Translations under genes and position numbers: made by a program
Source: an archaeon
Lineage (GTDB): Archaea > Aenigmatarchaeota > Aenigmatarchaeia > PWEA01 > JAGHBM01
Reading direction: 5' to 3'
Length of the DNA stretch: 64,000 nucleotides
Assembly (NCBI GenBank): GCA_020355185.1
Contig: CP070662.1
Coordinates: 350,357-414,356, forward strand
Notes under the pieces: generated by a model
The model's database searches: none
Told to the model about the DNA's origin: nothing
What the model saw: only the letters and a program-made list of their open reading frames with translations
In this document: positions 32,868-55,423 of the stretch, piece by piece
Numbering within the stretch: position 1 is the first letter of the stretch
How the letters are laid out: each line of letters opens with the position of its first letter

Positions 32868-33848
32868 ATGAGAAGAACACCCCTGTTAGTATTCATCCTT
32901 CTCTTGTTGCCTTCCCTTTCCATGGCCCAGAGCAGCATGGAATTGCATGAAGGCGAAATGGATCTGAGGATATCACTGGAAACGGGATATATAAATCCTC
33001 TGGAATCGGAACCGGAGCTGTTTCTTTGCAGGCAGGAATGCAGGCATCTGGAAATAAGTTCTTTCAGCTACTCCGCGGGCAGCATGGATTTCTTTGTCCT
33101 GCCCGAGGTGTCCGGAGATTATAACCTGAAGATTTTTATGACGGTCAACGGGGAGGAAGTTGTTTATGAAAAGGAAATAAGCATTTCCAGAGAATACACA
33201 AAAAGCGAGACCCAAGAAAAGAACCAGGACGTGACGGCCAATATAATGAGAAATGCAGCCAGCCCCGTAGTTGGTCTGGGTTTACTGGCTTCCGTATTAC
33301 TCCTTTTTCTTTTCAAAACGGAGGGGTTTGGCCTCAAAAAAAGTCTTTTGCCCATGCCTAAGAATGGATTAAAGATTCTGACAGTCTTTCTCGTTTCTTT
33401 CCTGTTTCTGTCCTCGTTCACCCACGAGTTGTTCCACATATTCCTGGCCGGCATGTTCAGCTGTCCGGCTGTCCTGGAATCCTTTATACCGGTGTTCACC
33501 CCGACTTCAGTTTCACTTCAGGCCTGCCGGATAACATCGGTGCAGAGCATCCTGATTCTGGCCGCGGGTGTCGTGGGAAACTTGGTCTTGGGCGGAATTT
33601 TCTGCATTCTGGCCAGGCTGAAGAAAAAGAGTTTTTTGTCCGTAATTTCCCTGGCCCTCTTTTCATCGTCCTTTTTGTACCTTTTTTACACCACCGGCGA
33701 CATTCACAGTATAATGAGCATACTTAATATAGGCATAAGCCAGATTTATCTTGACGCGACCGGGATAGCTCTAATTCTGGTCACCTTTATTGTTTTTCTG
33801 AGAACTCAGAACAGGGGCACGTATCCCAGGTACCAGAGGAATATGTAA
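32868..33848 (+). CDS. Polytopic membrane protein with signal peptide and HExxH in a TM helix (putative intramembrane metalloprotease)
   Basis: Signal peptide LLVFILLLLPSLSMAQS, an extracytoplasmic domain of about 120 aa, then 5-6 TM helices with FTHELFHIFLAG and AAGVVGNLVLGG. Confidence 0.5.
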   Translation: MRRTPLLVFILLLLPSLSMAQSSMELHEGEMDLRISLETGYINPLESEPELFLCRQECRHLEISSFSYSAGSMDFFVLPEVSGDYNLKIFMTVNGEEVVYEKEISISREYTKSETQEKNQDVTANIMRNAASPVVGLGLLASVLLLFLFKTEGFGLKKSLLPMPKNGLKILTVFLVSFLFLSSFTHELFHIFLAGMFSCPAVLESFIPVFTPTSVSLQACRITSVQSILILAAGVVGNLVLGGIFCILARLKKKSFLSVISLALFSSSFLYLFYTTGDIHSIMSILNIGISQIYLDATGIALILVTFIVFLRTQNRGTYPRYQRNM

Positions 33849-36014: not shown

Positions 36015-36776
36015 CTATCTCCTTAACTTTCTGTATGCAAGATAAATCAAGACAAAAATCACAATTATGATTATCAGATACAACAGTGAATCGGATTCCT
36101 CCTCCTCGCCCAGGGAGAAAAACCCGGTGGGAAGGCGGCCTCTTTCTTGGCTTTCCTCCTCCTCTTTTTCTCTCACCCCGATGTTCCAAGTCCCGCCGGT
36201 GCCCGTACCCGATTTGTTGGACTCTATCTCCTGGTAATACTGCTCCAGAGTCTCCTCGTATTCCTCCTGGGTTTCGGCATTAACGTTTCCGGGTATGGTT
36301 ATGGAATAGGCATATTCTCGGGCCTGGGATATCTTTTCCCTGGTACCGCCGGGTCCCCCTTCTTCCGAGGTGGCCGTGGCTATTATCTTTACAACGTGAT
36401 AGTTTCTGGAAATCTCGCTTATGTTGTCCGGGATTTTAAGCGTTACGTAAACAGGAACAGCCTTTGCGTAGTTATCACCAAGAACAACCCATTCCTCCTC
36501 TCCCATCGGGTTAATTACGCTTTTCCAGTTCTCAAGAATGAAATATCTCGGGTTTATGCTTGTCCTTATCTCCCTGCTGCCTTCTTTCCCCATCTCCACG
36601 ACAAGAGGGGTATTTCCGTTGTTGAAGAAGGAGAGCTTGAATTCTCTTGCCTCCCCGGGTATCATGGTGACCCTCTGGTTGTGGCCCACGGAACCGAAGC
36701 TCATCTGGTCTCCACAGGCGGTACCGGCAAACAAGAGAATTAAAACAACCAAAATGCCCAAATACGATTTTTTCAT
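36015..36776 (-). CDS. Secreted beta-sandwich protein with acidic linker and C-terminal TM anchor (253 aa)
   Basis: Signal peptide, MIPGEAREFKLSFFNNGNTPLVV strand signature, Glu-rich spacer, and TM + YRKLRR tail. The stop lies 1 nt before the next start. Confidence 0.6.
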   Translation of the reverse strand: MKKSYLGILVVLILLFAGTACGDQMSFGSVGHNQRVTMIPGEAREFKLSFFNNGNTPLVVEMGKEGSREIRTSINPRYFILENWKSVINPMGEEEWVVLGDNYAKAVPVYVTLKIPDNISEISRNYHVVKIIATATSEEGGPGGTREKISQAREYAYSITIPGNVNAETQEEYEETLEQYYQEIESNKSGTGTGGTWNIGVREKEEEESQERGRLPTGFFSLGEEEESDSLLYLIIIIVIFVLIYLAYRKLRR

Positions 36777-36808: not shown

Positions 36809-39800
36809 TTACCAGGAGGCGTTTGCCATTATAGTTACAGTGCCCGCGTACGACCCCGTATACACTGGCGGGGTGTCCAGCCAGAAGTAAACCGAATGGG
36901 TTATTCCTGAATCGGCAGGCTCAATTATAGCTTCATAAGTATGGTTCATCCTGGCGGAAACACCGTAACCGGCGCATGCCCTGCACCAGCTTATGTTGGA
37001 AACTTCTATGGGCGTGGAAGTCCCCGCCATGTCCGTGCCTTTTATGTAAAGCCCCTGTGCATCATTCGAGTTCTTGTCCAGTCCGATCTGATAAGGATTG
37101 CCCGGCGCCGCTATCCCCTGAATATCCGGGTCTCTGTCTCCCCAGTCAATTTCGTCAGTGGATACATTCAGCACCAGGACCAAACCTATCCTTATCAGAG
37201 AGTTGGTTGTGTCGTTAGACGGGTTATAAAAGATAACATCTATGTTATAGTATTCATCAAGAGAGCCCGTGGAATTAACCTTCCATATAAAAGTGTAATT
37301 TTCGTCTTGGTCCAAGTTACAACTCTGGGGGTTTAGGTCAAATGTGTAAAATGGAACATCTCCCGGTGTTGTTGAAACATCTGTGTTGGGCTCAGTTCCA
37401 CTTGAATTATATCTTACTTTTCCATAAAGAGTCCCGCATCTCGATTCCTTGCATATTACAGTTGCATTTACGGTAAAGTTTTTGTATCGCGGGGTTATTG
37501 TGTTGTCCGGCGGTTCATTTAAAAACACAATCAATTTTCCTTCGGGCAGAGTTATGTTAACAGTTGTATTGTCTTCGTAACTCTCAGAAGCGTTATAATA
37601 CAAGGTGGAATTATCGGTAATGTTACACTTCGGATAGTAAACCCCATCTTCATACCAAGTTGTATCCCAGCTTCCGATTGCATGGCCCGTAGAGTTTGTA
37701 AAGTTGCTACCAAGACTTACACTATGAGTCGAGTTTTCCACATAAAAATTAACCAAATAGTCCTGTATACCCACACTGGTGTTTGAGTTTTCCACCAGAC
37801 AAGTTAAAGGAACAATTTCACCCTGAGTATAATTATCTCCGCTATCCGGCGAAATCCAGTCTACCTTGCTCCATCCCCGGACAAAGATTGTAATGCTATC
37901 CTCTCCGGAATCATAATATTGTTTTGTAACGCTTATCGTTACAAGTTCCGGTCCTACAGAGTGGCCTGACGGAACAATCCAGGTTGTATTTTCGCCAGAA
38001 GCTATATAATCTGTTGTATTTGTCCAGTTGGCCTGGTCCGGCGTGACAGCAATGTCATTTTCATCCTTGGTCGTTGAGTTCAGCCATGTCAAACTCTCAA
38101 CCTGATAAATTGATTCGTTCGCAGGATAACCCATACTTATATTTAATATACCAATGAGAGTAACAGACCCGGAGGCGTCATCGTCTGCGGCAGTGGTGTT
38201 ATAGTATGCGGACGGTTTGTTGTTTATGAGGCACCTCAAAGTTTTTGGTCCCACCGTCTCGGTTTGCGCATCCCAGTTCACTGTGGCGTAACCGGTCGAG
38301 TTCGTGTTATCCGAGTTTATGTAATCCCAGTCATCATCGTAAAAATCAACCTGATAATTTTCTATTCCGTACAAGCCGTCCTTATCAATAACCCTGCACG
38401 TGAGTGGAACCGTACCTCTGTAAGTGCTTCCCGAAGGTCCAGTCCATTCCACTTTACTTCTGCCCCAGACATCAAAAGTTTTGTATCCCAAGGAATCGTT
38501 CCAGTTCGGCGGAACAACTTGGTCGGATGCATTAATTTTCGTCACATGCACACCAACAATCCAAGAAGAGTTTGTATTAATGGTGTGATTAGTCCAGTTA
38601 TCGCCACCGATAGTTTCTGTCGCGTATCCTACTATTTGGGATGACGTGTCGTTAAACATGGTGTAAGAGTTTCCGATAGACTCGTTCCACTGTGCATAAA
38701 TCAGTAAGGCGTCGCCCTTCCAGACAACCGTATCATTTATTCCGTAAGTAATGGCAAAGGGTGGGGTTATGTCTTCCCCGGGCTCTTTGGTGGTTAAAGT
38801 CTCTGTTTTGTTGTTGTTCGAAGAGGCATTATACATGATGGCAGCATAATCGGTGATGTTGCAAACCAGCGTATCGGTTCCGTTACTGTAATCTATGTAT
38901 TTCCAGACAGCCCAGCCACTCGAGTTTGTTTGATTTGCACCCAAAATATTCGTGGAATTGTAGAAGCTGATGTTATAACCGGAAATAGCGCTTCCATTCA
39001 AATCAGTAACCCTACAACTAAACAAAGTCGAACTCCCTTCATAAATTATGTTCGGGTTCAGGTCACTGTCACTGACCTCGGACCAACCCCAGACTTCCGT
39101 TGTGTTTATCTGGGTCATGTTTTCGTTGCTCGATGAGTCGTTTGCATAAATTCTCCATCCGAGTATACCCGGGGTCATGCTCATTGGAATGGTTAATTCA
39201 AATTCGGCCCAATTTTCTATAACAATGGCATCTGCCAGCGAACTGTTTTGCCAAGTTCCTGTTTCGTTTGTTGACAGCCAGGCATAATCTAATGCCTCGT
39301 TATCATCCCAATAGGACTTATAGAGAATAGCGTCTCCCTTATGTACTACAGAAACGTTCTGGCTTACTTGCGAGTATTTGGGAGGTTCCGTCTCTATCGT
39401 TCTTAATGTTTTTATTTCGTAGTAGTCTGATGTGACGTTGTAATAAAGCGTGGAATTTTCAGTAATGTTACATGTAATGTTTTCATACCCCAAACTGTTA
39501 TCAACAAAGGTAAAACGTGCCCAGCCTGTCTGGTTTGTATTATTTGTGCCCAACTGATTTGTCGAGTTGTAGAAAACAACATTGTAACCACCAACGCCGC
39601 TTGTATTGTCAGAGACCACCCTACAATACACTGTTAAAGGATTTCCCTGGACAACAGTTGACGGGTCAAGATAGCTGCTGGGGATGCTTGACCAGCCCCA
39701 AACCTCAAAATTAAGGTGGTATAAGGTATTATTCCAGTTACCATTCAAGTCACTTGAATAAATTTTTAGGGAGTGAACCCCCAGCAACCAAGATACATTC

Positions 39801-42800
39801 GTATAAAGAGTGCGATTAGTCCAGTTACCCGTGTATGGGGGCGAAATGGTGTGGTTAAACAAGCTGAAGGCAGTATCGTTGTATTCGGTTTTTGAGTCAT
39901 TGATTTCTTCATTCCATCTTGCGTATGCGGCCAGAGAGTCCCCTCTGTTTACAATATAATCTGTCAAACCGTATATCTCATTGTAAAGCTTGGGTGGTAA
40001 TCCTTCCGTAGGTATTAAGTTATACGTGGAATAGTCTTCTTCAGTCCAAAAAGTATCGTTTATTAAAAAGTGAACGAGTTTTTTTCCAGAACCCGTGGTG
40101 ATATTGAATATGTAATAGAAAGTTACATTATTGTTAACCTGCACCAACATATTTCCTTGGGAGGTATTCCATTCAATTTTTCCGGGGGACCAGTTACCTC
40201 CAGTATAGTTTAACGTCGAGTTTTCGTACCATATATCATGCGTATGGTTTATATTCCAACTTGAGTCCAGATTTTCATGGAATATTACATCAGAAGATGT
40301 TATTGTCCAGTTTGACTCGCTGGTGTCATTAACCCAGGCAACTATTTCTGCCCTATAAACATTACCTGTGTATAAGTCAAATGTAGTATTCAAACCAGAG
40401 CCAACGGGATCTGATGTATTAGTATGTTTATCAGAGGCATCAGTTACATCAAATATCCTTATTTCTTGAATTTGAACCAAAGATAACGGCTCTGTTATAG
40501 AGAATTGATAGTAACCAAGTATATCCGAGTCGTCGTCATTTTTTAAAATGTTTCCGCTCGGGTCTGCCAGATAACCCAAAACCCTGTAAGTTCCTGCAGG
40601 CTCCAAGTCAGTATTCCATGCGCTCGGATTCCATAAAGTGTCTAGTGCCAGAGAAGCGCCTGCAGAAATGTTGTGGGATTCGTTGTTTAAAACGATTCCG
40701 CCGGAGACATCTTGCCAGCCGCCCCCGACATATCTCTGGACTTTCATAGTCAGATATCCTTTAATATCCTTATTTCCGGTGTTCTTAATTGCGGACCTGA
40801 TATAAGCAATTTTTAATTCCGGTTGGTTTGTTCCCTGGCTTCCATCAATTTCAAAGTAGGCGTTTTCACCGCTTTCATTGATTAAATATGCCACCAAATC
40901 TTTATCGGCCATGTATGATTCGTTAACACTCACCAGTACATCTATAGTTTTATTTCCGGCTGTGGATGCGCTGAAATTCCCTATGGGATTTGATTCGGAA
41001 CATTCACTCGGTTGGCCGTCATCATAAATCGTGTTTACTGGAGTGGAGGAGTTATAGGTCCCGTTTGTATGATAAACCAAGCCTGTAGCCGATGCAGAGG
41101 CTGTAACTGAAACAGTTAAATTCGCAGATAGAATTTTTGCTCCGTCCGGAATTTCACTCAGGTTGAATTTCAGATAATACCGCTGCTTTACTGTAGTGTA
41201 AGTAATATTCAATGCGGCATAATCTATAGCAAGTAAGCTGTCGTCGCCCAGATAAGTTATCTCATATCTGGCTTTAATTTCATTGGAAGAATCGTTAACA
41301 AAGTCCGACATTTTTCCGTATGCGTCCCAGCTGCCATTTACTTCATAACCCCAGTCACTTGTGCTCAAATCCCCTATATCAACCCAAGACCCGGATGAAT
41401 AATTGTAAACTTCAACGTCTTGGAAACCCACCGGCACACCCTCCGGGGAGTCCCCGTCACAGGATGGTCCTCCTCCATTGGAGCCATCATGACAGTATAC
41501 CAGTTCGAAGTTCAGTCTGGTTATGTGATTTTCATCTATCCCCAGAGAAGTTATGTTAAAGGTCAATTCACCGTAAGCGTTGGGGCTTCCGCCCTGTGAA
41601 CCGTACCACCAGTAGGAGCCGTCATCTGATTGCGTGTCTGTATAGTCCCCGCCGCTGGCATCATAAATTCCTGTTATTTGGTCATCATCCGCCAAATCCA
41701 ACGAGGTGTCGTTCTTGTATCCGATTCCAGCCGTGCCCGGATCATCTATTCTGGTTCCGTTGAACATGGCAACCACATCATAACTAGCGTTTTTCGTTGT
41801 TTCTTGGTCAATGTAACTTGTTAAATTAACATACTCCAAGGGACCATAAGAATCATCAATTGTTTTGACATTCAGAGTGGCATTGGAGCTTATGTTGAAA
41901 TAGTAAACAGAACTTTGGTTTGTTTTTCCAGCAGTGTCCTGCGCCCAAACATAATAGGAGTATTGCCCGTTTTTCCAAGTACCTGAAAAGTTGTATTCAT
42001 ATACGTCTTGCGTGTAGTTGGTCATGTCATACGCAGTATAACTTTCTTCAGGAGGTTTTACATATACCCTTACGATATTTACACCATCCCAGTCAGTTAC
42101 ATTTGCCGAGATGGTTACGTTTTGTCCATAACCCTGCGAATCGGGTGAATTTACAACATCCTTTATGAAAGGTTTGTCGTGAACAGTTATGTTTGTCGTG
42201 TTCCAAGATGGATTCGTATAAATAGAACTTTTACCGTCATAAGAAACATTAATTTGATGGTTTCCCAAAGTTTCACTTGATGAAAGCTGATAATCTACTG
42301 TTGCCAGGCCGCCGGAATCAGTAAGGTCCCAACCAATAAAGTAACCAGTGGTTGTATCGTTAAATGTTATGTTTTGATTTGGTATTTCGGTACCGTTATC
42401 ATATTTCAAATAGGCACTTACTCTAACGGTTTCCCCCCCAACCGGATCGGAATTGTTAACTGAAGGGTTTATAGTTGTATTTGCGTAGACAGTTATTGTA
42501 ACAATATCCCAGTCTGTATAACCTTCCTGGCACGAAGTATCAAGTCTAACTTCTTGCGGACCCAGCTGGGAACTTATTACCAAACCCGCTGTTATGTTGT
42601 TCCAAAAAATGTTTCCAGGGGCAAGAGTTTCATTATTTTCGTTTAAATTACCAGAGGAGTTGGTCCAACCGCTTGGTAACGTCCAGTTAAGCCATAAATC
42701 ATTTACAGTTATCACTATTGTATTATTCACATAACCTCTTAAGTCGCCGGATCCGCCCCTGGTTACGATAGTGGGATATTCGCTAATTTCAGTAGACAGT

Positions 42801-45800: not shown

Positions 45801-48800
45801 TTGAATAAAGAGGATCCGTTATATGCTGTAACCCAGATATCAGTCCAGTTTATTTCATCGATATTGGAGGAGTCGTTATAATCAAAATTCACCCCTCTTA
45901 TTCTCAAGTCCCTGTTTCCAGCAGTTTCCCAAGCACTCAAGACAGAAGAGTTGGTTGTGGAAAGACTAAAATTACCGGTTGAGTTTACACTGAAGTTTCC
46001 TATTTCTATCCATCCGCCACCATCTGTTGTTGCCATTTCCAGTTGTAAGTCGGGGTTGCCATTTCCGTTATTAGAAGAACCCGAGTTGTTGTAAAAAGAA
46101 ACATTAACAGTCACCGTTAATTTTGTCAAATCCTCCATATTTCCTGACAAAACATCATTGTAAGTCGTGTAGGATGTGTTTGCTTCTCTATCCACATCCT
46201 CTAAGGCAGAGTAAGATATGTTTATATCATCAAACCCCCTGCCATCATTTGTGCACGGAAAATTATCATGCTGCATGAATTTTACCGCGAAAGATCCGTT
46301 AACCTCGGAACAAAAGTCCGGGTCAGCTGAAATGTTATGTTCATGGTATCCCCAACTTCCCTCGTCTGTTGTGAGCGCTTCAAGTCTGTACCAATAACTT
46401 CCGTTACAGGTGAAGAACACACCGTCACCGCAGGCACTGTTGCCTGAACAGCCTGACTGGTAGTCTCCGTAATGGTCTCCTAATTGATGGGATTCTTCTC
46501 CTGTTTCTATATGATAAAAGCTAAGAATTATGTTACTTGCTCCTGAGAAATCATAAGTAGTCTTAATTACATTAGTCTCGTACTGGTTACTAGAAGTGAC
46601 ATCCATCCAAAGATAATAAAGTCCTGAATTTGGCGAAGTACAGGCAGATAACTGGACATCTGTTGAGTTATAAGTTCCCGGATTTCCTATCACAGTCCAA
46701 TTGCCCGTAATACCACCGCTTTCAAAACCATCAAAAAATTCTGCAGGAAAAGTTCCCGGTGTTTGAGCCTTTTTCTGTATTTCCCCAGACTCCCGGTCAT
46801 CAGAAGTTAGGTCTTTGCCGAGTGTCAAGTTTACGTATTGGTTCAATCCGTACGAATCTTCAATTGCAAATACCGTTATCAATGCGCTGCCATTTACATA
46901 GAAATATGGGTCGTATTCTTGGATGTTCCCGTAAGTATCGTTAGCCCATATCGAATAATAATAGCTTCCGGTTTGCCAGGGTGTATAGTTATATTCATAG
47001 ATATCTTGCGTATAGTTGGTCATTTCTCGCCATTCCAAGGTGTCGTCGGGTAGCGTTATATTCACAAAAACCCTATCCACGTTTGAGTTATCAGTTACAT
47101 TTGCCGAGATGGTAACGATTCTTCCGAGCCCGCTTGTTTCAGGACTCGCATCAACATCAGCTATAACCGGTTTGGTTGCATCCGCGCTCATTATCATTAA
47201 ATGACTTTCGCTCGAGTTCGTATAATTCTGATTCCCAGCAAAATAACCTGTTACGTTGAACATATCATCAGGACTAAAACTACTTGTGTTTGTAAAGTTT
47301 GTCAGGGGAGTAAATCCTGGGGAGTTGGAAACGTTTTCTGTTATCCCAGTAAAGTTTGTCCAGATTTCAACATCAACACCTGAAATATTCAAGGCTGCTG
47401 TTATGTTGGCGATTTGTCCCACTTCATAAACCACGTCTCCGTCCGTTCCGTTCAAGAGCAAATTAATTTCCGTGGGAGCTTTCTGGACGGTGAAAGACTG
47501 TATCGCCATGGTATCGTTCCAGTCATCTAACGTATCATTTGCCCAATAGTTCCATCCGACCGTTTTTCCTCCAGGAAGTTCTGAACTCGGGATACTGCAG
47601 TAATAAATGTTGCTTTGATTATCGCAAATTGGGTCAGTTGTCGTGTAGTTAGTCCATGTCCCGGTGTAGTTGCTCCTGAAAATAACCGTTCCCAAGCCGA
47701 CAGCATCGTTCCACGTGGAATTGCACTGCACGTCATTCCCGTAAACCGGGTTTCCCGCGGGGTTCTGTTGCACATCTGAATAGTTAGGCGGCGTGGTATC
47801 AACGCTAAAGTATCTGGTATCGGAATTGTTCATGTTACCTTTTGTGTCATTGCAGTAGAAAACCACGTAATTTGAACCGTCTGATATGCCTGAAAGATTG
47901 AGGTAAAAGTGCATGGTTGAATCATTGCTCATCGTCTGGTTTGCACCATCGTTCAGGGAAACGCCACACCAGTCACCGGTTTCGTCCAGAGTAACATTTG
48001 ACCATACCCAGTTCTGCTGATAAACTTGGTTCAGGGGGGACTCTATGGTGATTACCGGAGGATTATCATATGTTACATTCATGTAAGGCCTCAGGGAAGT
48101 GTCAACACCATATTCCTTTGAATACAAACGGTCTTCAGCGGAACTTGCAGTTTCCGGTGTCCTAATAACTATGGAAACGTTATTGTCTCCGTTTTCATAT
48201 TCCGACCTTACCGTATTGGTAACGTTCCAGCAGACCCAACCAACCGCGGTAGTTGCCTGCGTATCTTCTGATGTGAGATTACACTCAGCAGAATTATCGA
48301 ACCCAGGATCACATGGCTGATCGTTCCAAATTATTCCGCCTTCAGTCCATGTGTGGTTGTAAACATGATGCGCAGAAGCCTGGGCCGTGGCACCATTTTG
48401 ATACAAGTAAAGACAAAGCAGTGATTCGCTAATACCAACCTTGTTTGGTATCGAACTAATATTGAACTTGATGTAAGTTCTGTAGGCCCTGTCAGTTCTG
48501 TCCCTTATTCTGACATTGCTGTCATCACCATAATTCGTGGTTGCAGAGTTGCTTCTTACATGAGTGTCATCAAGGTTCTCCGAATCAGGAGCCTGCAGCT
48601 GCACTGTCGGGTCCAGAACGATATCAGAACCGGTGAAGTTGCTTATCCTTATATCTGCCGTATTTTCGTCTATCTGCTTGGTTTCAACCAAGATACCGGA
48701 GGTTGTGCAGTGGTCTTCCTCGTCGCACGTTAGGTTGTACAGGTCGGAGAAATCTATTTCCAATTCTCCGATTAGCAGGGTATCGTTATCCAGAACAGTT

Positions 48801-49666
48801 ATGCCCGACCCGGAGCTTATTGTAAGTCCAACGTATTCCAGACCCTGAACATTTGTAAACAAGTGAGACCACTTGTAATAACCGGATCCCTCTTTTATTT
48901 CAGTTTTAAAATTCATTGAGCTCGGAATCCCCTGTTCAAACCCTCCCATAACCACATAAGGTTCCAGGTTTGCGGTTTTGCCGTTCCATTCCAGTTCCAG
49001 ATTTTGTGAGGAGGCGTTGTAGGCAAAACCGACCAGTTCATTGAAGGGTCTGTAAATTCCTTCAGAATCTTCCATATTCATTTTTCCGGAGTAAAGACTC
49101 CTCGTGCAGCCATCACCGTTACAATTCTCTGTCCAGGTAGAACCGTACGTTGTTTTTGAAAAACCTGTTTCAGTTTTCGATTTAACAGTTACAGTTGGTT
49201 CAATCCAAGAAGTGGTGGTGGAGACAGAGGAAACCGTTTTTTGCATGTCCCCAATTTCAAATTCTTTTGTAACGCATTCTTTACCGGACCTGAGTATGAC
49301 CGTATAAAAACCATTTTCAAATTTAGGCAGGAATAACTTGTAAGAGCCAGACGAATCTGTTGATGTGGTCCTTTCAAATATTTCATTCTGAGAAGAATCC
49401 AAAACTGTCAGAGAGAAAGGCGTGTTTGAAGGTCCTGATATATCAAAACTTATTGATTCCTGATAAATTTCTGCATCAACAAAGAAAACTTCTGAAGATT
49501 GCGTCAAAGAACTGATGACAGGAAATAAAACAAAGGCCAAAACCATTACAAAGGCCGTGTTATAGGGATTTCTGGCGAATACGGAACCCTTCTTCAAACC
49601 GTTTTTTATTTTCAACGCAATCATATCAATCACAGTATTTTCTTGCATCCTCATCCGTTGTTCCAA
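36809..49666 (-). CDS. Giant secreted surface protein (4285 aa), multi-domain adhesin-like
   Basis: Uninterrupted 12.9-kb ORF. N-terminal signal anchor (AFVMVLAFVLFPVISSL). CarboxypepD_reg-like module. DNRLRE/CBM96-like modules (...NVRIRDRTDRAYRTYIKFNISSIP...LCLYLY; ...QRYYLKFNLSEIPDGAKILSANLTV). Many repeated Ig-like modules. Very rich in N, T, S, Y, W and in NxS/T sequons. The TTG at 49666 overlaps the upstream ORF, and the ATG at 49624 is an alternative start. Confidence 0.85.
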   Translation of the reverse strand: MEQRMRMQENTVIDMIALKIKNGLKKGSVFARNPYNTAFVMVLAFVLFPVISSLTQSSEVFFVDAEIYQESISFDISGPSNTPFSLTVLDSSQNEIFERTTSTDSSGSYKLFLPKFENGFYTVILRSGKECVTKEFEIGDMQKTVSSVSTTTSWIEPTVTVKSKTETGFSKTTYGSTWTENCNGDGCTRSLYSGKMNMEDSEGIYRPFNELVGFAYNASSQNLELEWNGKTANLEPYVVMGGFEQGIPSSMNFKTEIKEGSGYYKWSHLFTNVQGLEYVGLTISSGSGITVLDNDTLLIGELEIDFSDLYNLTCDEEDHCTTSGILVETKQIDENTADIRISNFTGSDIVLDPTVQLQAPDSENLDDTHVRSNSATTNYGDDSNVRIRDRTDRAYRTYIKFNISSIPNKVGISESLLCLYLYQNGATAQASAHHVYNHTWTEGGIIWNDQPCDPGFDNSAECNLTSEDTQATTAVGWVCWNVTNTVRSEYENGDNNVSIVIRTPETASSAEDRLYSKEYGVDTSLRPYMNVTYDNPPVITIESPLNQVYQQNWVWSNVTLDETGDWCGVSLNDGANQTMSNDSTMHFYLNLSGISDGSNYVVFYCNDTKGNMNNSDTRYFSVDTTPPNYSDVQQNPAGNPVYGNDVQCNSTWNDAVGLGTVIFRSNYTGTWTNYTTTDPICDNQSNIYYCSIPSSELPGGKTVGWNYWANDTLDDWNDTMAIQSFTVQKAPTEINLLLNGTDGDVVYEVGQIANITAALNISGVDVEIWTNFTGITENVSNSPGFTPLTNFTNTSSFSPDDMFNVTGYFAGNQNYTNSSESHLMIMSADATKPVIADVDASPETSGLGRIVTISANVTDNSNVDRVFVNITLPDDTLEWREMTNYTQDIYEYNYTPWQTGSYYYSIWANDTYGNIQEYDPYFYVNGSALITVFAIEDSYGLNQYVNLTLGKDLTSDDRESGEIQKKAQTPGTFPAEFFDGFESGGITGNWTVIGNPGTYNSTDVQLSACTSPNSGLYYLWMDVTSSNQYETNVIKTTYDFSGASNIILSFYHIETGEESHQLGDHYGDYQSGCSGNSACGDGVFFTCNGSYWYRLEALTTDEGSWGYHEHNISADPDFCSEVNGSFAVKFMQHDNFPCTNDGRGFDDINISYSALEDVDREANTSYTTYNDVLSGNMEDLTKLTVTVNVSFYNNSGSSNNGNGNPDLQLEMATTDGGGWIEIGNFSVNSTGNFSLSTTNSSVLSAWETAGNRDLRIRGVNFDYNDSSNIDEINWTDIWVTAYNGSSLFNNGPTDISGYLLMEIQTNNSGSWNVVEIIIDDTNTSTLRNISAGEYLDVGSIWNAEPWSTYGQETGWYRVYAALTDDEGNVLQNDDSSYIENVDYFELTLFVFSDITDTPDPVGYGYNVTISGDITGGDVDTALVEITYPDSASYNFTMVNISADTWQYNFSDTWQWSGYSYRIWANDSSGAGYFSDVNTFNVTVNATIDVSTENDSYGPNEYVNITVYYKSDEWWNSSWESRKQVNVTEPGVGDRTFWPIDTYVTFAQGKVVNCTKEIRVTSGKIDEISSQVYDEKYSSGYCVGANVVFLSNVSEGSTSTYYIYYNNSQASKPSYTGLNDPSVVDRGTGFSIGTSYGTGDTIQINGTYSGSNQPLVYFDLYSAQSIIAYDDWDLSPGMFHFWSNAGDVFGGCTFSGEADCGFITQHSDATNYSDAGNASSVVFDVVGPLMHKITMKAPGVANPAYPGVISGSEYTYVWRIYYTPDYEISRIEANYTSNFSTSFTETSWPDWPHERMPSWDINPVQDNFSYITPSGAVTEPLLGTELAQQHTDWNETWGVMHLDGSYGQTFGYFLLNSSYTPNNTNWAITNLGGTGGLWGMAWVPFNMQDSTISGIYTYEAYYVTLNGSNYVPVRNEWKKVENPVSVTLGSNESYDRISKVVNTGSVDMKYYIIMRVQHWTGSGWENTGFPVMDQSDGIQSTDAGQKKYLDTLWEAGGGWNTTLEPAGTYRIYAALVDLNGNALKDYSGSDLVATYNFTIISAYMELTNLTHENEYNFDVEEYETGDNIAWINVTVTNRNTTSVNASITLNVLDHLSSMVDWGPDETQYCGNLDADEACEKKFDNQTYGYPIPLDATSGNYNFFWNVTMGSDSGNTTQNSSINFTIHHVPDGFSSNMTPEKIYQNKSSLYNFTVANPWSKNLTSVNVTVNCPQGLGFTCNCTLAGQTNQNYCNLGTITGGGWKNATFNISTNSTPAGDYHINATINYTNPGGEYHSWGEQEDKILMLRIPGLSTEISEYPTIVTRGGSGDLRGYVNNTIVITVNDLWLNWTLPSGWTNSSGNLNENNETLAPGNIFWNNITAGLVISSQLGPQEVRLDTSCQEGYTDWDIVTITVYANTTINPSVNNSDPVGGETVRVSAYLKYDNGTEIPNQNITFNDTTTGYFIGWDLTDSGGLATVDYQLSSSETLGNHQINVSYDGKSSIYTNPSWNTTNITVHDKPFIKDVVNSPDSQGYGQNVTISANVTDWDGVNIVRVYVKPPEESYTAYDMTNYTQDVYEYNFSGTWKNGQYSYYVWAQDTAGKTNQSSVYYFNISSNATLNVKTIDDSYGPLEYVNLTSYIDQETTKNASYDVVAMFNGTRIDDPGTAGIGYKNDTSLDLADDDQITGIYDASGGDYTDTQSDDGSYWWYGSQGGSPNAYGELTFNITSLGIDENHITRLNFELVYCHDGSNGGGPSCDGDSPEGVPVGFQDVEVYNYSSGSWVDIGDLSTSDWGYEVNGSWDAYGKMSDFVNDSSNEIKARYEITYLGDDSLLAIDYAALNITYTTVKQRYYLKFNLSEIPDGAKILSANLTVSVTASASATGLVYHTNGTYNSSTPVNTIYDDGQPSECSESNPIGNFSASTAGNKTIDVLVSVNESYMADKDLVAYLINESGENAYFEIDGSQGTNQPELKIAYIRSAIKNTGNKDIKGYLTMKVQRYVGGGWQDVSGGIVLNNESHNISAGASLALDTLWNPSAWNTDLEPAGTYRVLGYLADPSGNILKNDDDSDILGYYQFSITEPLSLVQIQEIRIFDVTDASDKHTNTSDPVGSGLNTTFDLYTGNVYRAEIVAWVNDTSESNWTITSSDVIFHENLDSSWNINHTHDIWYENSTLNYTGGNWSPGKIEWNTSQGNMLVQVNNNVTFYYIFNITTGSGKKLVHFLINDTFWTEEDYSTYNLIPTEGLPPKLYNEIYGLTDYIVNRGDSLAAYARWNEEINDSKTEYNDTAFSLFNHTISPPYTGNWTNRTLYTNVSWLLGVHSLKIYSSDLNGNWNNTLYHLNFEVWGWSSIPSSYLDPSTVVQGNPLTVYCRVVSDNTSGVGGYNVVFYNSTNQLGTNNTNQTGWARFTFVDNSLGYENITCNITENSTLYYNVTSDYYEIKTLRTIETEPPKYSQVSQNVSVVHKGDAILYKSYWDDNEALDYAWLSTNETGTWQNSSLADAIVIENWAEFELTIPMSMTPGILGWRIYANDSSSNENMTQINTTEVWGWSEVSDSDLNPNIIYEGSSTLFSCRVTDLNGSAISGYNISFYNSTNILGANQTNSSGWAVWKYIDYSNGTDTLVCNITDYAAIMYNASSNNNKTETLTTKEPGEDITPPFAITYGINDTVVWKGDALLIYAQWNESIGNSYTMFNDTSSQIVGYATETIGGDNWTNHTINTNSSWIVGVHVTKINASDQVVPPNWNDSLGYKTFDVWGRSKVEWTGPSGSTYRGTVPLTCRVIDKDGLYGIENYQVDFYDDDWDYINSDNTNSTGYATVNWDAQTETVGPKTLRCLINNKPSAYYNTTAADDDASGSVTLIGILNISMGYPANESIYQVESLTWLNSTTKDENDIAVTPDQANWTNTTDYIASGENTTWIVPSGHSVGPELVTISVTKQYYDSGEDSITIFVRGWSKVDWISPDSGDNYTQGEIVPLTCLVENSNTSVGIQDYLVNFYVENSTHSVSLGSNFTNSTGHAIGSWDTTWYEDGVYYPKCNITDNSTLYYNASESYEDNTTVNITLPEGKLIVFLNEPPDNTITPRYKNFTVNATVICKESRCGTLYGKVRYNSSGTEPNTDVSTTPGDVPFYTFDLNPQSCNLDQDENYTFIWKVNSTGSLDEYYNIDVIFYNPSNDTTNSLIRIGLVLVLNVSTDEIDWGDRDPDIQGIAAPGNPYQIGLDKNSNDAQGLYIKGTDMAGTSTPIEVSNISWCRACAGYGVSARMNHTYEAIIEPADSGITHSVYFWLDTPPVYTGSYAGTVTIMANASW
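37550..40010 (-). repeat. Four tandem ~200-aa two-domain units inside the 4285-aa protein
   Basis: Each unit ends its first domain with V(W/R)G(W/R)S (VWGWSSIPSS, VWGWSEVSDS, VWGRSKVEWT, VRGWSKVDWI). An Ig-like domain follows with ...C(R/L)V.D/E...GY.V.FY...N.TG.A... and CNIT(E/D)..., spaced about 600 nt apart. Confidence 0.7.
48030..49160 (-). repeat. Conserved N-terminal module of the 4285-aa protein (paralogous to 53860-54985)
   Basis: About 375 aa collinear with the 1771-aa protein. DNA includes identical runs, for example AGGTTCCAGGTTTGCGGTTTTGCCGTTCCATTCCAGTTCCAGATTTT and GAGGAGGCGTTGTAGGCAAAACCGACCAGTTCATTGAAGGGTCTGTAAATTCCTTC in both copies. Confidence 0.85.
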
Positions 49667-50114
49667 TACATACGAAATATTCCAGGCTCGGTGAATACTC
49701 TCCCCTTTGCGTGCTTACGGCGAGCTGCCACTTTCCTACCTTCACCGCCCTTACCGAAACACCATCGTTCCCATTTTTGTATTCAAGTTCCCCTTCCAGA
49801 TGTTCCAATCCCTTTGGCAGTTCCAGTCTAACGCCTTCTATTTCCGGATTAATTTTCCATTCGATAACAGACTCTTCACCAATGGACATGATAAACCCAT
49901 TTCCCGTTTTTTCAACATGCCTTATATCAAATACAGCGTCTACCTCCGGTTCCATCAAAATAATTCCCAAAGCCGCCCCCATAATTCCAACTGCAATGAT
50001 TATTATCATGATTTGGTATGGTCGGGACGATTTAGGTTGGGTATTAGATCTGGGGGGAACCAGAAACGACTCTACAAACTCCCCGACCACATGTGTATAA
50101 ACCATTTTTACCAT
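49626..50114 (-). CDS. Single-pass membrane protein (162 aa) wedged between the two giant genes
   Basis: TM helix YQIMIIIIAVGIMGAALGIILM followed by a ~110-aa beta-rich ectodomain. Overlaps the 1771-aa stop by 7 nt and the annotated 4285-aa start by 41 nt. Confidence 0.6.
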   Translation of the reverse strand: MVKMVYTHVVGEFVESFLVPPRSNTQPKSSRPYQIMIIIIAVGIMGAALGIILMEPEVDAVFDIRHVEKTGNGFIMSIGEESVIEWKINPEIEGVRLELPKGLEHLEGELEYKNGNDGVSVRAVKVGKWQLAVSTQRGEYSPSLEYFVCIGTTDEDARKYCD

Positions 50115-53100
50115 GTTGCATTCGCCATTATAGTCATCGTGCCCACGTAATTCTGGGCCATTTTACCGTAAGGAACATTCAACCAGTAGTAGGTTGTCTT
50201 GTTCTGCCCCGATGGAACATTCTGGTCCATCAGAGAGTAGGAATATTCCATAGCTGAACCGGTGGAGGGATTGTTCTCAAAACTCCAGGAGATGTTGCCG
50301 GGTCCTATATCGTAGTTGGCCCAGGCTTCCCCCACCATATCAGTTGCCTTTATCCAAAGATAATCCAGGTCATTGCTGTTGGGATCCACGGAGATGTTGT
50401 AGTATTCGTCGGAGTTGTTCAGGGCGGGCCGTTCTGCCTCTCCAGGATCCAGTACCCCAAAACTTACGGTGTCAAAAGTCAGGCTCATGACCAGAACTTT
50501 GCCTATCTCCACTGTGCTGTTTTCGGTGTGGTTGCTTATCTGTGACGTTTCAAAGTAGGCCCCAATTTCGTAAAAATCTCCAAGAGTTCCGGTGGAATTA
50601 ACGCTCCACACCATTGTGGCGTTTTCATCCTGTCCTAAATTTTGCTGTTGCGGGTTGCTATCAAAGGTGTAGAACGGCGTTCCACTGTTTTCAGGTATAT
50701 CCGTATCCGGCTCATTTCCACTTGAGTTGTATCGGACATAGCCCTTAACAAGTCCGCAATTTCCCTTTAAACATATAACAGTAGCATTTATGGTGAAATT
50801 CCTGTACTGAGGAACTATGGTGTTATCCGGAGGAGTATTCAGTGTTACGTTCAGCAGGGCTTTTTGTCCGCCTCCGTATGCGTCAAATTCCGTAACGTTG
50901 AACCAGATGTGTGTAGAATTTTCCTGCATGTTGTAGTCTGAGGTTTCGTTAACCTCCCAAGAAGAACAGTTTGATGTCTTATAGTCCCAATTCGTGCAGT
51001 GAGCAATGTGGGAGACGTTAACTCCGGCCTTCGGTATACAGAGTGTCGCGTAGTCATAATTAACATTGAGTTCTTTCTGTGCATAAACAGGTGTAACGTT
51101 GCTTATTCCCTGAGGAAAAGTTCCCGTGTAGGTTTCCACTATCTGGGAAGTTATGTTCAGATTATCGGATATATTCACATTCTTCAGGTAAGTCTCCTGG
51201 AATCCAGAGGAAAGTTCGGTCCTGAGAGATATGTCATAAAGTTCGTATGCATCCACGTCAGTGGAAATGTTTCCCTGCCCTTCTGTAATAAGACTTCCGG
51301 TAGAATTATATAACCTTATATTGGTATTGCTGCTGGGACCGAGAGTAGTATTGACTGTTATGTTAAGTTCCGCCAAAACTTCATAAGAAAGTTCATCGGA
51401 AACCACATTGTTGTTGCGGGTATCATTTGCATAAATTTTCCATGCAATTACTTTGCCCAAACAGGAATCAGGCACGGTTCTGGTTACGTTGGACCAGGCG
51501 CCTGTCGGTTCTCCGGCCCAAGCCATCGAGCTTTCATTCTGGAAGCCCGCATCGCAGCCGGCTCCTGTCGCATTCCATGATAGCTTGTAAGTGTCAAGCC
51601 CCTTATCATCGCTCCAGTAAACAGAATGTTTGATTGTCGTGCCCTTGTAAATATCAGTAACGTTTATCTGTTCATCCGAAGGCGCGGGCGGATAATCCAA
51701 AATACCCAAAGGTTTTGTGACGTTTGAATCATATGTTGAATCACCCCAGTATACGTTGGCTACTCTGCCACCGGAACTCGTCACGTCCGCATACACCTTC
51801 ACCATAAGCCTCTGATTTTTGCTTATATTGAAGGAAGAGCCTGACCATATGGAAGGATATGAGTCCAAGTCAATCACGTCTGCCGTGTTGCCTGCGTTCT
51901 GGGTAACAGCTGTGCATCCGGTTCCGTCATTTTCACAGACTAGTATATCGTAATCAATATGAAATGTAATTGGTCCGCTTGTCCCTGTTCTTTGTCCCCA
52001 AAAAACAAAATCCCAGTTACCCGAGAGTATTTCCTGTGCAGGTAACTGGTTGGTTACAAACGTTGCAAGCCTATACCTTTGCACGGCGGCGCCCACGGTT
52101 GAGTTGCTGGTGCCAGAGGCAGTGTTGGTGCCGTTTAACCTGTAGAAGTTTCCGCCTGTAAGCACGGTGGTGTCATTTCTGAAGTAAAGGTTTTCAATCG
52201 GTTCACTGACCTCCATTATCCAGCTCTCCTCATCGGTTGTGTAATTTTCATCTCCTGTCCAGTTGGCTTTCACCAGATATTTTCCGTAATTAATGTTGCT
52301 GGTATTCGTTGTATTTGACAGTGGGTCAGGGCCCTCGTCAATTAACTCTAAAGGTCCGCTGAAGTTTGCATAGAGATAAAGATATTTCCCGGATACATTA
52401 AGTGTTGTCTTCAATTCCACAATTTGACCTTTAATATATTTTTTATTCCCTCTAGTCCCGTTAAGCAAAAGGGTCTGTTCCGTAGGACCCTTGGTTATGT
52501 TAAGTAACCGCGTAACAGAACCGCTGGTATAGTTTTCACCCCCGCTTGTATTGTACAGGTAAGAGTAAAGGTTTACCCCCAACCGCTTTAAATCACTTAC
52601 GGGAGAACCTAGAGAGATAGGCGTATCGTTCCTGTAAAGACTGAAAGTCAGGTCCTGAATAGCATCAGACCAAGCTGTCACGTTTGATACAACAGGATAA
52701 GTCAGGTCCTGGTTCTCTTCACTGCCGTTTATGGCCAGATGCAAATGTGAAGAAGGGTCTCTCTTTCCTACAGTCAGATAAAAAGTCTGACCAGTGAAAT
52801 TGCTGGTATAGTTCACATTCCCCGTAATGTTGACCTTGTAGGCGTACCCAGAAGGCTTCGCGCCCAAGACCAGGCTTTGACCGTTCTCCCCGGTTACGTC
52901 AGCACCGTCCCTGTAAAGGTGAACTGTTCCGGAACCAGTGTAAAGTGCGGCCCCGGTGGCGTTCGTCGCCTCCTCATACACAACGCTCATGTTCTGGTTG
53001 AGAAACTCTCCCGAGGAGTTCCTGAAGTAAAGCTCCACAGGATTGCTCTGGTTCTGCTGTATTGTAACGACCGCTGTAACACCGGTTAAGTTAGCAGTCC

Positions 53101-55423
53101 AGTTGGCACCACCCGTAGAATTGAAGCGATAAGTATAGGAACCGGCGGCAAGCAAGGCAGTCTCTTCATACGGAGAAGAGTTTGTAATCAGGCTGTCATT
53201 TCTCCAGAGCTCATAAGTCACATCGGAATCCCCGCCATCGCTTTCAGTGCCGGTAACACCGCTTTCATGAGGGTAGGTCCATGTTCCCCCGCCCGAGATT
53301 TGCAGGTCCAAGATACCCTTGTTCACATTTCTGTACTGGTTCAAAAGAGAATAAGAAGTGTAGTTCTCCGTTTCTGCTATAGCGCACGTGTAGTTGTAAA
53401 CAGCTGCACCCAAAATCACCGATGATTCATTTATCGGGCTGGTTGTACCCTGTGCAACCTGGGAATCGTTCCTGTACAGAGTCAAAGTGGAGGTGGAATC
53501 TCCTGCCAGCCTTTCACAGCCTGTTTGTGTTGATGAAGGATAAACAACAGTCGTCAGGGGACCCACCGATATAGAAGGTGTGGCCTTGTTGACTGAGTAA
53601 ACGGTCTGGGGAAAAGAATCGTTCATCTGCCCGCCGGTGCTGTTGGCATACCACTTGTAGACGTATGTCCCGGCAGCCAGGCTTCCAACATCAAAATAAT
53701 ATTCCCTCTGGTTACCTGATATGGTCCTGTAGGTTGTAACAGTATCATTTTGCATAGAGCCGGTAAAGTTATTCTCCAACCATGTCTGGTCTATTCCGCT
53801 TTCATCGTCCCAGGTAAGGTTGAACTGGTAAGACTGGCTTGGTGAATAGTTTGAACCGGAAACCGGGGAGACAGTCTCCCCCGAATAAGTTGGAGGCTTG
53901 CTGTAAGTTATGTTCATGTAAGGCCTCAGGGATGTGGTTGCATATTCCTTTGAGTATAAATCATCCTGGCTTTCGCTCCCCGTCTCAGGAGTCACTAACA
54001 CAACAGACACGTTCCCGTCCCCGCTTTCATATTCCGACCTTACCGTATTGGTAACGTTCCAGCAGAGCCAGCCCGTTCCCGTTGTGGTCTGAACATCCTC
54101 GGCAGTAAGGTTACATTCAAGCGAGTTATCGAGCCCTGTACCACATGGCTGATCGTTCCAAGTTATTCCAAGTTCCGTCCACGTGTGGTTGTAAACATGA
54201 TGCGCGTAACTCTGGCTTGTGCTACCGTCAATGTAAAGGTAAAGACAGAGGAGCGCCTTGTCAATATTTTTTCCCGAAGGAACCGAGCTTATGTTGAATT
54301 TGATATAGGTTCTGTATATCTTGTTTGTCCTGTCCCTTATGGTTACATAATCGTCAGTCCCGTAATTGTCACCGCTCTTGTCGCTTCTGACATTCGTGTC
54401 ATCTAGGTTCTCCGAGCCAGGAGCCTGCAGCTGCACTGTCGGATCCAGAACAACTTCAGCCCCTGTGAAGTTGCTTATCCTTATATCTGCAGTATTTTCG
54501 TTTATCTGCTTGGTTTCAACCAAGATACCGGAGGTTGTGCAGTTCCCGAGCCCGTCGCAGGTCTTGTTATACAAATCAGAGAAATCTATTTCCAATTCTC
54601 CGATTAGCAGGGTATCGTTATCCAGAACGACTACCCCGGAACCCGAACTAATGGTCAGTCCAAACGATTCCAGGCCGGGGGCATTTGTAAACAAGTGAGA
54701 CCACTTGTAATAACCCGGGCCTTCCTCTATCTCAGTCCTGAAATTCATGACCGCAGGAACTTCCTGTTCAAACCCGCCTATAACCGCATAAGGTTCCAGG
54801 TTTGCGGTTTTGCCGTTCCATTCCAGTTCCAGATTTTTTGAGGAGGCGTTGTAGGCAAAACCGACCAGTTCATTGAAGGGTCTGTAAATTCCTTCGGAAT
54901 CTTCCATGTTCATTTTTCCGGAGTAAAGACTCCTCGTGCAGGTATCCTTGCAACTCTCCGTCCACGTGGGACCGTAATCAAAATTTGAAATTTCCGCCTC
55001 TTGCATAGGACTTGAAATTAATGGTGCGGCGGGTGCGTAGACAGGTTGGGCGTCTTCGGAAACAGATTCAGAAGAATCTTTTACCGCACCCACCGCAAAT
55101 TCTTTTGACCTGACAGTCTGACCGGAACTGATTATAGCTACGTAATCCCCGTTTTCCAGTGGCAGGGAAAGAAAATAAGAGCCCAACGAGTCCGTGGAGC
55201 TTGCTCTTGAAAAAACTTCCCGACCTGTCTGGTCAATTACAGTCAGGGAGAACGGAGTTTTGGGAGGACCAGAAACGAGTATTGATATTGATTCTCCGTA
55301 GGAGTCTTTAGTTTCCAATACCCATTCTTCAGCAGAAAAAACAAAACCAGAAAAAAGGAAAACAGAGATTAATGTGGCTATAAATATACCTTTAAGTCGT
55401 TTATTCCCCCACACGACACCCAA
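50108..55423 (-). CDS. Large secreted surface protein (1771 aa), paralog of the 4285-aa protein at both termini
   Basis: TTG start about 30 nt downstream of a TATA box. Signal anchor IFIATLISVFLFSGFVFSA. Same N-terminal ~520 aa architecture and same C-terminal ~245-aa module ending ...YVGTMTIMANATW (compare ...YAGTVTIMANASW). Confidence 0.85.
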   Translation of the reverse strand: MGVVWGNKRLKGIFIATLISVFLFSGFVFSAEEWVLETKDSYGESISILVSGPPKTPFSLTVIDQTGREVFSRASSTDSLGSYFLSLPLENGDYVAIISSGQTVRSKEFAVGAVKDSSESVSEDAQPVYAPAAPLISSPMQEAEISNFDYGPTWTESCKDTCTRSLYSGKMNMEDSEGIYRPFNELVGFAYNASSKNLELEWNGKTANLEPYAVIGGFEQEVPAVMNFRTEIEEGPGYYKWSHLFTNAPGLESFGLTISSGSGVVVLDNDTLLIGELEIDFSDLYNKTCDGLGNCTTSGILVETKQINENTADIRISNFTGAEVVLDPTVQLQAPGSENLDDTNVRSDKSGDNYGTDDYVTIRDRTNKIYRTYIKFNISSVPSGKNIDKALLCLYLYIDGSTSQSYAHHVYNHTWTELGITWNDQPCGTGLDNSLECNLTAEDVQTTTGTGWLCWNVTNTVRSEYESGDGNVSVVLVTPETGSESQDDLYSKEYATTSLRPYMNITYSKPPTYSGETVSPVSGSNYSPSQSYQFNLTWDDESGIDQTWLENNFTGSMQNDTVTTYRTISGNQREYYFDVGSLAAGTYVYKWYANSTGGQMNDSFPQTVYSVNKATPSISVGPLTTVVYPSSTQTGCERLAGDSTSTLTLYRNDSQVAQGTTSPINESSVILGAAVYNYTCAIAETENYTSYSLLNQYRNVNKGILDLQISGGGTWTYPHESGVTGTESDGGDSDVTYELWRNDSLITNSSPYEETALLAAGSYTYRFNSTGGANWTANLTGVTAVVTIQQNQSNPVELYFRNSSGEFLNQNMSVVYEEATNATGAALYTGSGTVHLYRDGADVTGENGQSLVLGAKPSGYAYKVNITGNVNYTSNFTGQTFYLTVGKRDPSSHLHLAINGSEENQDLTYPVVSNVTAWSDAIQDLTFSLYRNDTPISLGSPVSDLKRLGVNLYSYLYNTSGGENYTSGSVTRLLNITKGPTEQTLLLNGTRGNKKYIKGQIVELKTTLNVSGKYLYLYANFSGPLELIDEGPDPLSNTTNTSNINYGKYLVKANWTGDENYTTDEESWIMEVSEPIENLYFRNDTTVLTGGNFYRLNGTNTASGTSNSTVGAAVQRYRLATFVTNQLPAQEILSGNWDFVFWGQRTGTSGPITFHIDYDILVCENDGTGCTAVTQNAGNTADVIDLDSYPSIWSGSSFNISKNQRLMVKVYADVTSSGGRVANVYWGDSTYDSNVTKPLGILDYPPAPSDEQINVTDIYKGTTIKHSVYWSDDKGLDTYKLSWNATGAGCDAGFQNESSMAWAGEPTGAWSNVTRTVPDSCLGKVIAWKIYANDTRNNNVVSDELSYEVLAELNITVNTTLGPSSNTNIRLYNSTGSLITEGQGNISTDVDAYELYDISLRTELSSGFQETYLKNVNISDNLNITSQIVETYTGTFPQGISNVTPVYAQKELNVNYDYATLCIPKAGVNVSHIAHCTNWDYKTSNCSSWEVNETSDYNMQENSTHIWFNVTEFDAYGGGQKALLNVTLNTPPDNTIVPQYRNFTINATVICLKGNCGLVKGYVRYNSSGNEPDTDIPENSGTPFYTFDSNPQQQNLGQDENATMVWSVNSTGTLGDFYEIGAYFETSQISNHTENSTVEIGKVLVMSLTFDTVSFGVLDPGEAERPALNNSDEYYNISVDPNSNDLDYLWIKATDMVGEAWANYDIGPGNISWSFENNPSTGSAMEYSYSLMDQNVPSGQNKTTYYWLNVPYGKMAQNYVGTMTIMANATW
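53860..54985 (-). repeat. Conserved N-terminal module of the 1771-aa protein (paralogous to 48030-49160)
   Basis: See the 48030-49160 entry. Protein blocks such as YSGKMNMEDSEGIYRPFNELVGFAYNASS.NLELEWNGKTANLEPY are identical. Confidence 0.85.

Follow-up and report, generated by a model that had tools for sequence, protein, structure and literature searches.

Two tandem giant genes and their shared ends

The stretch of DNA analyzed here (the window) comprises 64,000 nucleotides (nt) of contig CP070662.1 (positions 350,357 to 414,356) from an archaeon of the Aenigmatarchaeota. Its genome consists of a single contig of 832,879 bp, the genomes of its relatives are DPANN-sized (0.6-1.3 Mb), and the archaeal marker genes CDC48, β-CASP aCPSF, and RNA cyclase were present. 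The subject of this report is a pair of neighboring genes on the minus strand of the window: gene A (36809..49666), encoding a secreted giant surface protein of 4285 amino acids (aa), and gene B (50108..55423), encoding a secreted giant paralog of 1771 aa. An earlier reading of the DNA letters (the original prediction) had placed two giants of these sizes at these coordinates, and open reading frames (ORFs) were found at exactly those positions. Both proteins carry N-terminal signal-peptide-like segments and an extreme density of N-x-S/T sequons for N-glycosylation, and their Pfam matches were limited to CBM96 and Ig-like domains. The sequences end in ...YAGTVTIMANASW (A) and ...YVGTMTIMANATW (B), and no hydrophobic C-terminal stretch or anchor was found in either protein, in line with the similar, anchorless C-terminal motif that had been described before.

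The true start of gene A is likely the ATG at position 49648 (MQENTV...), which is conserved with the ortholog in the congeneric genome G002, and gene B likely starts with the GTG at position 55414, which matches the MWG... starts of the orthologs P0018 and P0019. In the database, the start of B (P0003, 1736 aa) is set 35 codons further downstream, which would remove the signal peptide. A TATA-like box (agatttatatat) was observed approximately 25-35 nt upstream of the TTG/GTG start region of B (window 55414-55460).

When the two proteins were compared using BLASTP, the N-termini aligned in one collinear high-scoring segment pair (HSP) with 54% identity over 700 aa, in which strong similarity stopped near residue 545 of A and residue 520 of B, and the C-termini aligned in one collinear HSP with 47% identity over 250 aa; the centers had a few short, weak Ig-like similarities in common and nothing more. 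The codon alignment split the N-terminal 520 aa into three parts, namely a signal peptide with a leader, a Thr/Ser-rich linker, and an N-proximal module (N-module). The signal peptide and leader (A aa 27-165) were 39% identical in amino acid sequence to those of B, with a synonymous divergence (dS) of 1.5. The N-module (A aa 166-535, 48062..49171; B aa 143-510, 53894..54997; both on the minus strand) was the only highly similar part, with 76% amino acid and 78% nucleotide identity, and blastn returned a single HSP between the two genes (window 48069-49147 vs 53904-54976, 78.2% over 1088 nt). The C-terminal modules (C-modules; A aa 4036-4285, 36812..37561; B aa 1515-1771, 50111..50881; both on the minus strand) were 47-49% identical in amino acid sequence and gave no blastn match at the DNA level; their third-codon-position identity was 0.2-0.45, which is saturated, and dS was not computable.

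The collinearity of the first ~520-545 aa and the last ~250 aa is therefore as originally predicted, the interiors differ as stated, and the span proposed for the N-module (48030-49160 vs 53860-54985) is close to that of the DNA HSP. The description of the terminal modules as near-identical was overstated, because the leader is only 39% and the C-module only 47-49% identical, the latter without a blastn match.

The leader domain is a small β-sandwich of approximately 85 aa located right after the signal peptide (A aa 57-144, 49235..49498; B aa 30-118, 55070..55336; minus strand, by leader profile match), and it is restricted to the nearest relatives. Part of the B leader (aa 48-109, window 55097-55282) matched TIGR04183 with 26 bits (cut-off 23). 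Assignment of the leader as a type A sorting domain of the type IX secretion system (T9SS) was rejected, given that the domain is N-terminal and the organism archaeal, and the match was taken as a resemblance of fold and profile only.

Identity tracts and origin of the N-proximal module

The second half of the N-module was recognized as DNRLRE/CBM96 in both proteins, with 89.8 and 83.9 bits for PF24517 (cut-off 26) and 91.4 and 90.5 bits for NF033679 (cut-off 34). A Foldseek search with an AlphaFold2 model of the B copy matched the carbohydrate-binding modules (CBMs) 8WAB (TMt 0.80, root-mean-square deviation 2.5 Å) and 7VBO (TMt 0.73), of which the former binds chondroitin sulfate and the latter is an alginate-binding CBM96. 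Model confidence, given as the predicted local distance difference test (pLDDT), was about 90 in the DNRLRE half and 50-76 in the first half, which is an unnamed, Cys-containing β domain of approximately 180 aa with a conserved C..C...LYSG motif; other DPANN proteins also have this domain together with DNRLRE. From its profile matches and modeled fold, the N-module is predicted to be a glycan-binding module of the CBM96/DNRLRE type. This speaks against the proposal that the conserved ends dock while the middle of the protein binds, as the shared N-module would itself be a glycan-binding part.

Identity within the N-module was unevenly distributed. Exact DNA runs of 57 and 51 nt were split by one substitution (49006/54838), and further exact runs of 50, 42, 41, 34, and 33 nt were present. 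The main tract (A, 48955..49109; B, 54787..54941; minus strand) comprises 155 nt, of which 152 are identical (98.1%, three differences), and has a dS of 0.086. A second group of high-identity tracts (A, 48633..48796, minus strand; B counterpart, 54465-54628) includes nt 871-920 at 100% and nt 956-1034 at 97.5% identity, with a dS of 0.25. Counted singly, the further tracts measured 34, 50, 79, and 42 nt at 97.5-100% identity, while the remaining module was 64.9% identical. By the NG86 method, dS fell to 0.086 in A aa 181-240 and to 0.25 in A aa 316-350, compared to 1.08, 1.37, 1.10, and >4 in the other segments of the module. Counting only identical amino acids with degenerate codons, the two genes use the same codon up to 35 times in a row (permutation p = 1.4e-4), and the 57-nt exact run had a permutation p of about 1e-4. 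Third-position identity reached 0.93-1.0 in the patch versus 0.53-0.77 in other module blocks with 80-87% amino acid identity; selection at the protein level therefore does not explain the tract, as these other blocks are well conserved too. The predicted RNA fold of the tract was no better than that of shuffled sequences (z = -0.85).

The tracts are thus more identical than their flanks, synonymous sites included, and the dS profile across the shared module is heterogeneous where uniform divergence would have spoken against the patchy pattern first noticed in the letters. The identical runs and the single substitution between them had been described correctly, although their lengths are 51 and 57 nt and not 47 and 56 nt.

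Syntenic gene pairs were found in two congeneric genomes, G001 (A' and B') and G002 (A'' and B''). In both, the same small secreted or anchored genes are followed by the B-type gene, a small transmembrane ORF, and the A-type gene, and in G001 genes like those for the 253-aa and 735-aa proteins of the window and the MoxR genes come next, as in the window. Collinear similarity joined B to B' and B'' in the leader and in the C-terminal 480-530 aa (56-60%) and A to A' in the C-terminal 1368 aa (45.5%), from which it follows that the tandem pair is older than these species. A distant pair in G040 (1809 and ~4113 aa) had the N-terminal 160 aa, the C-module, and one internal piece in common. The tandem pair of a small and a giant gene with common ends is a recurring plan in the class, and the architecture of conserved ends around a variable center that was originally proposed is real.

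The N-module was absent from A', A'', B', and B''. A' and B' have in common a different, non-homologous N-proximal module that adjoins a DUF2341 domain (Pfam) and showed no similarity to the N-module of the window. These two genes aligned in a 749-nt HSP at 91.5% identity, within which 567 nt are identical without interruption (L041 5528-6094 vs 13361-13927). The shared tract begins just behind the leader and linker, in the same relative place as in the window, and its flanks are saturated in dS.

Nearly all of A, including the module, aligned collinearly with P0175 (4056 aa, a G085 gene from another family, f12) and P0176 (4059 aa, an NCBI record), and residues 123-627, 623-1614, and 1937-4266 of A matched these proteins at 33-46% identity. 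A third homolog, P0174 (3643 aa, Aenigmarchaeota), has the leader and module in common with A, and its module is 50% identical. In the N-module trees, A and B were sisters (support 96/94, starred, in one tree and 85/99 in another) and the B branch was longer; a topology placing A among the other A-type giants to the exclusion of B was rejected (approximately unbiased test, p-AU 0.006). A metagenome scan with the N-module returned relatives at 42% and 30% identity only. The simplest and most likely reading of these comparisons is that the N-module is ancestral in the A-type giants and was copied from A to B in this lineage, because the A-type giants P0174-P0176 carry it and the syntenic orthologs of B do not. 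In G002, A'' carries the G001-type module in diverged form and B'' lacks it, so the direction would again be from the A-type to the B-type gene. Several short, later conversion events most likely kept parts of the N-module identical.

Gene conversion, which had been suggested for both ends, is accordingly retained for the N-proximal module, where the heterogeneous dS, the module trees, incongruent with the rest of the genes, and the 567-nt tract of G001 point to it.

Internal DNA repeats were observed in the A-type giant of G001, whose gene is split over two contig ends: 802 nt at 85% (L041 1092-1892 vs 3147-3947), 554 nt at 87%, and 286 nt at 100% identity (G001:C2, L043+L044, 15246-15531 vs 17217-17502). 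Similar intragenic repeats occur in the giants of G049, G085, and G093.

The C-terminal module family and neighboring genes

A full HMMER search with the last 257 aa of B yielded 428 clusters at 50% identity, 139 of them with E <= 1e-30. Wherever the match was full-length (140 of 140 proteins, 227-7373 aa long), no more than 12 residues separated the end of the module from the C-terminus. By profile search, 123 of 301 genomes in the class, representing 71 of 151 genera, were found to encode the C-module; each of them had 1-7 matches, and the longest ORF concerned measured 12,864 aa. Searches of Pfam, NCBIfam, and PDB sequences gave no match, and a single-protein search for related loci returned one metagenome-assembled genome fragment only, from Candidatus Aenigmatarchaeota, which is the closest named relative for this module. 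The structure prediction proposed along with the original prediction was carried out and gave two β-sandwich domains (AlphaFold2, pLDDT 94.2). Among the top 50 Foldseek hits there was no specific fold for the module, only generic matches to tandem Ig-like domains. The candidate identification as a TasA or archaeal bundling-pilin subunit (AbpA-type, donor-strand) was rejected, with no Pfam, NCBIfam, or PDB sequence match and no TasA in the Foldseek top 50.

In the maximum-likelihood tree of the C-module, A grouped with A' of G001 and P0029 (A-type clade, support 99/95, starred), and B belonged to the other starred clade with P0168, B', and B'' (B-type clade). Forcing A and B into one clade cost 186 log-likelihood units (p-AU 1e-4). 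This rejection, together with the saturated sites, argues that no conversion took place at the C-module, and here the originally suggested gene conversion did not hold. The shared tail is, as judged from this tree, a product of common ancestry of a family-wide domain and not of recent exchange. Derivation of B from A by an internal deletion is ruled out by the same tree.

Almost invariably, an N-x-S/T sequon lies 1-3 residues before the stop codon of C-module proteins (NASW, NATW; window 36812-36823 and 50111-50122). Its Asn was invariant in an alignment of 33 sequences, and a tail sequon was seen in 124 of the 140 proteins of the family. This site may serve for glycosylation or processing at the very end of the protein. 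The 12,864-aa open frame, which ends in a C-module (G144:C1:99292-102381), also contains an extra internal copy of sub-domain 1, and elsewhere in the class sub-domain 2 alone makes up stand-alone ORFs of 157-204 aa.

Several neighboring genes encode candidate partners of the giants. Between A and B, and overlapping both, lies a gene for a 162-aa single-pass membrane protein (49626..50114, minus strand) that is conserved in G001, G002, and G049. Downstream of A, also on the minus strand, lie two more genes. The first (36015..36776), conserved downstream of C-module genes, encodes a protein of 253 aa that has a signal peptide and carries a transmembrane anchor at its C-terminus; the second (33806..36013) encodes a protein of 735 aa in which a signal peptide, a Pro/Thr linker, and transmembrane helices at the C-terminus were recognized. 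Homologs matching most or all of the 735-aa protein were found in about 17 of 301 genomes; in 15 of the 15 cases with coordinates, the window's own genome excluded, the homolog lay 0.8-1.7 kb downstream of a gene ending in a C-module, usually with a 253-like gene in between. Upstream of B are three secreted paralogs of approximately 320 aa (window 55836-59956), which correspond one-to-one to genes in G001 and G002. Sub-domain 2 of the C-module gave weak collinear hmmsearch matches to these paralogs (E 5e-5 to 0.04 among 9 sequences), and hhalign gave a probability of 13%; a PDB sequence search with their profile returned nothing significant. It is plausible that the C-module docks onto anchored neighbors or a fiber, since the genes for the anchored 253-aa and 735-aa proteins are conserved downstream and the ~320-aa paralogs show weak similarity to it.

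Farther downstream, tandem MoxR-type AAA genes (30018-30921 vs 31005-31906) are 69% identical in DNA over 913 nt, and this duplication is also present in G001. ARAGORN found no tRNA genes in the window.

Interpretation and comparison with known systems

We consider it probable that A and B are old tandem paralogs with an inherited tail, and that the N-module was copied from A to B and then touched by short conversions; the proteins may also have the surface docking and tip roles set out below. Their family would comprise giant surface proteins of Aenigmatarchaeota (DPANN) that are exported by Sec and heavily N-glycosylated; each would consist of a signal peptide, a small β-sandwich leader, a chain of variable composition made up of Ig-like, CARDB, LamG, or CBM domains, and the C-terminal module of two β-sandwiches. 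B would have gained its N-module from its neighbor A by non-reciprocal recombination after the split from the congeneric species, and later gene conversion (155 nt at 98%; several tracts of 34-79 nt at 97.5-100%) would keep parts of the module identical. The C-module would hold the giants at the cell surface via co-encoded membrane-anchored or secreted partners, and the lectin-like N-module would form the distal tip that touches glycans, for example those of a host cell. A and B would then show the same tip on stalks of different length.

Several points weigh against this account. A' and A'' also lack the N-module, so that at least one extra replacement is needed, and a history in which A and B kept the module while B' and B'' lost it would be less parsimonious, though conceivable. 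The exact module occurs in two sequences only and has no close outgroup sequence; tract boundaries and the A-to-B direction rest on where the module is present or absent and not on a test with four taxa. With a dS of ~1 outside the tracts, near the 1.5 of the leader, synonymous divergence by itself does not tell whether the module as a whole was transferred after the A/B duplication. In G002, the two genes have no N-proximal module in common (no hit at E <= 1e-8), which indicates that exchange is frequent but not universal. As to function, the fold search for the C-module was generic (Ig-like), and the docking and tip roles were inferred.

Recombination would be unnecessary if both ends had been inherited and the patches reflected strong purifying selection together with codon bias. 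At the protein level the patch does coincide with the best-conserved block of the module, where the C..C...LYSG motif is kept in distant homologs, and dS outside the patches (about 1) is not clearly below that of the leader. However, the other blocks with 80-87% amino acid identity fall well short of the patch in third-position identity, the permutation of synonymous matches argues against chance, the orthologs of B lack the module, and G001 shows a perfect 567-nt tract in another module at the same position; we regard this explanation as unlikely. Selection acting on the nucleotide sequence itself, through an embedded RNA structure or a regulatory site, would account for the conserved synonymous sites of the tract, but the tract folds no better than its shuffles, the syntenic genes of G001 and G002 lack the module and hence this sequence, and the perfect tract of G001 is an unrelated sequence, which together make it extremely improbable.

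The genome is a metagenome-type assembly, and cross-talk between paralogs during assembly or polishing could in principle have produced identical stretches. Against such an artefact, the tracts are at most 155 nt long, contain three differing sites, are in frame in both genes, and sit inside a 1.1-kb region of graded similarity, and the pair and its order recur in two independent congeneric assemblies; the probability of this explanation appears very low. The same holds for the full model of the original prediction, in which both terminal modules are exchangeable cassettes homogenized by gene conversion. Both ends are indeed collinear, and the two tandem C-modules of G085 are 72% identical in DNA, but the C-modules of the window have no DNA-level similarity and saturated synonymous sites, and each groups with its orthologs elsewhere, with a joint A+B clade rejected. 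We consider that model highly unlikely.

Starting from the preferred reading, in which the module was copied from A to B, a broader picture can be drawn only tentatively, and we would rather doubt than accept it as a whole. The site behind the leader may be a recurrent swap site at which the short paralog takes over the glycan-binding tip of the giant (DNRLRE/CBM96 here, the DUF2341-associated module in the sister species), presenting one host-recognition tip on two reaches; the tip, being species-specific, might determine host range, and the C-module might be a family-wide dock to the 253-, 735-, and 162-aa partners.

DPANN archaea depend on physical cell contact, and their contact proteins are almost unknown beyond a few cultured nanohaloarchaea. 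The C-module marks a large family of surface proteins in approximately 40% of the sampled Aenigmatarchaeia genomes, within a conserved operon plan that sets membrane-anchored partners beside the giant genes. The predicted lectin-like tip module appears to be exchanged between tandem paralogs and replaced between species. These parts are concrete candidates for host recognition and anchoring and offer a testable picture of how tiny genomes may diversify their surface.

Gene conversion between paralogous surface or adhesin genes is classical in bacteria, as in babA/babB of Helicobacter pylori, opa and pil of Neisseria, and tpr of Treponema. The window resembles these systems in the non-reciprocal transfer of a segment between paralogs, in patchy identity that includes synonymous sites, and in the exchange of a putative ligand-binding part. 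In contrast to them, the window has two giant genes (1771 and 4285 aa) of a DPANN archaeon that stand side by side in tandem, and no silent cassette archive, switch-site repeats, or evidence of rapid phase or antigenic variation was found. Exchange between A and B seems to be an occasional event with one direction, the long gene being the donor and the short one the recipient.

The DNRLRE domain was first described in Methanosarcina surface proteins (PMC2447325), and the alginate-binding CBM96 of Dp0100 is represented by PDB 7VBO (PMC9971899). The domain of the window matches these families far above the cut-offs, and its predicted fold superposes on 7VBO and 8WAB; unlike the known CBM96, it has no attached polysaccharide lyase, and the unnamed ~180-aa β domain travels in front of it. 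Giant surface proteins of DPANN archaea have been described as the nanohaloarchaeal 'SPEARE' proteins SVXNc_0300 and BNXNv_0298 and as LamG-domain proteins, with membrane anchors and a VirB4-like domain (PMC10266531). A and B share with SPEARE proteins the Sec signal peptide, the huge Ig-like/lectin-like ectodomain, the very small genomes, the proposed host contact, and the strong variation between relatives (PMC10266531), but they have neither a membrane anchor nor a VirB4/TraG-like ATPase domain (Pfam), and carry the conserved two-β-sandwich C-module instead.

By analogy only, the C-module can be compared to C-terminal sorting or anchoring domains such as the T9SS C-terminal domain, SLH, and PGF-CTERM, being β-rich, conserved, and placed strictly at the extreme C-terminus of unrelated passengers of varied length. 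It differs from them in having no sequence or specific fold match, two domains (~250 aa), no transmembrane segment, and an archaeal lineage. No description of the C-module family, or of the copying of a tip module between tandem giants in archaea, was found in the literature that was searched. The mechanism is that known from the conversion of bacterial surface paralogs; the protein family is new.

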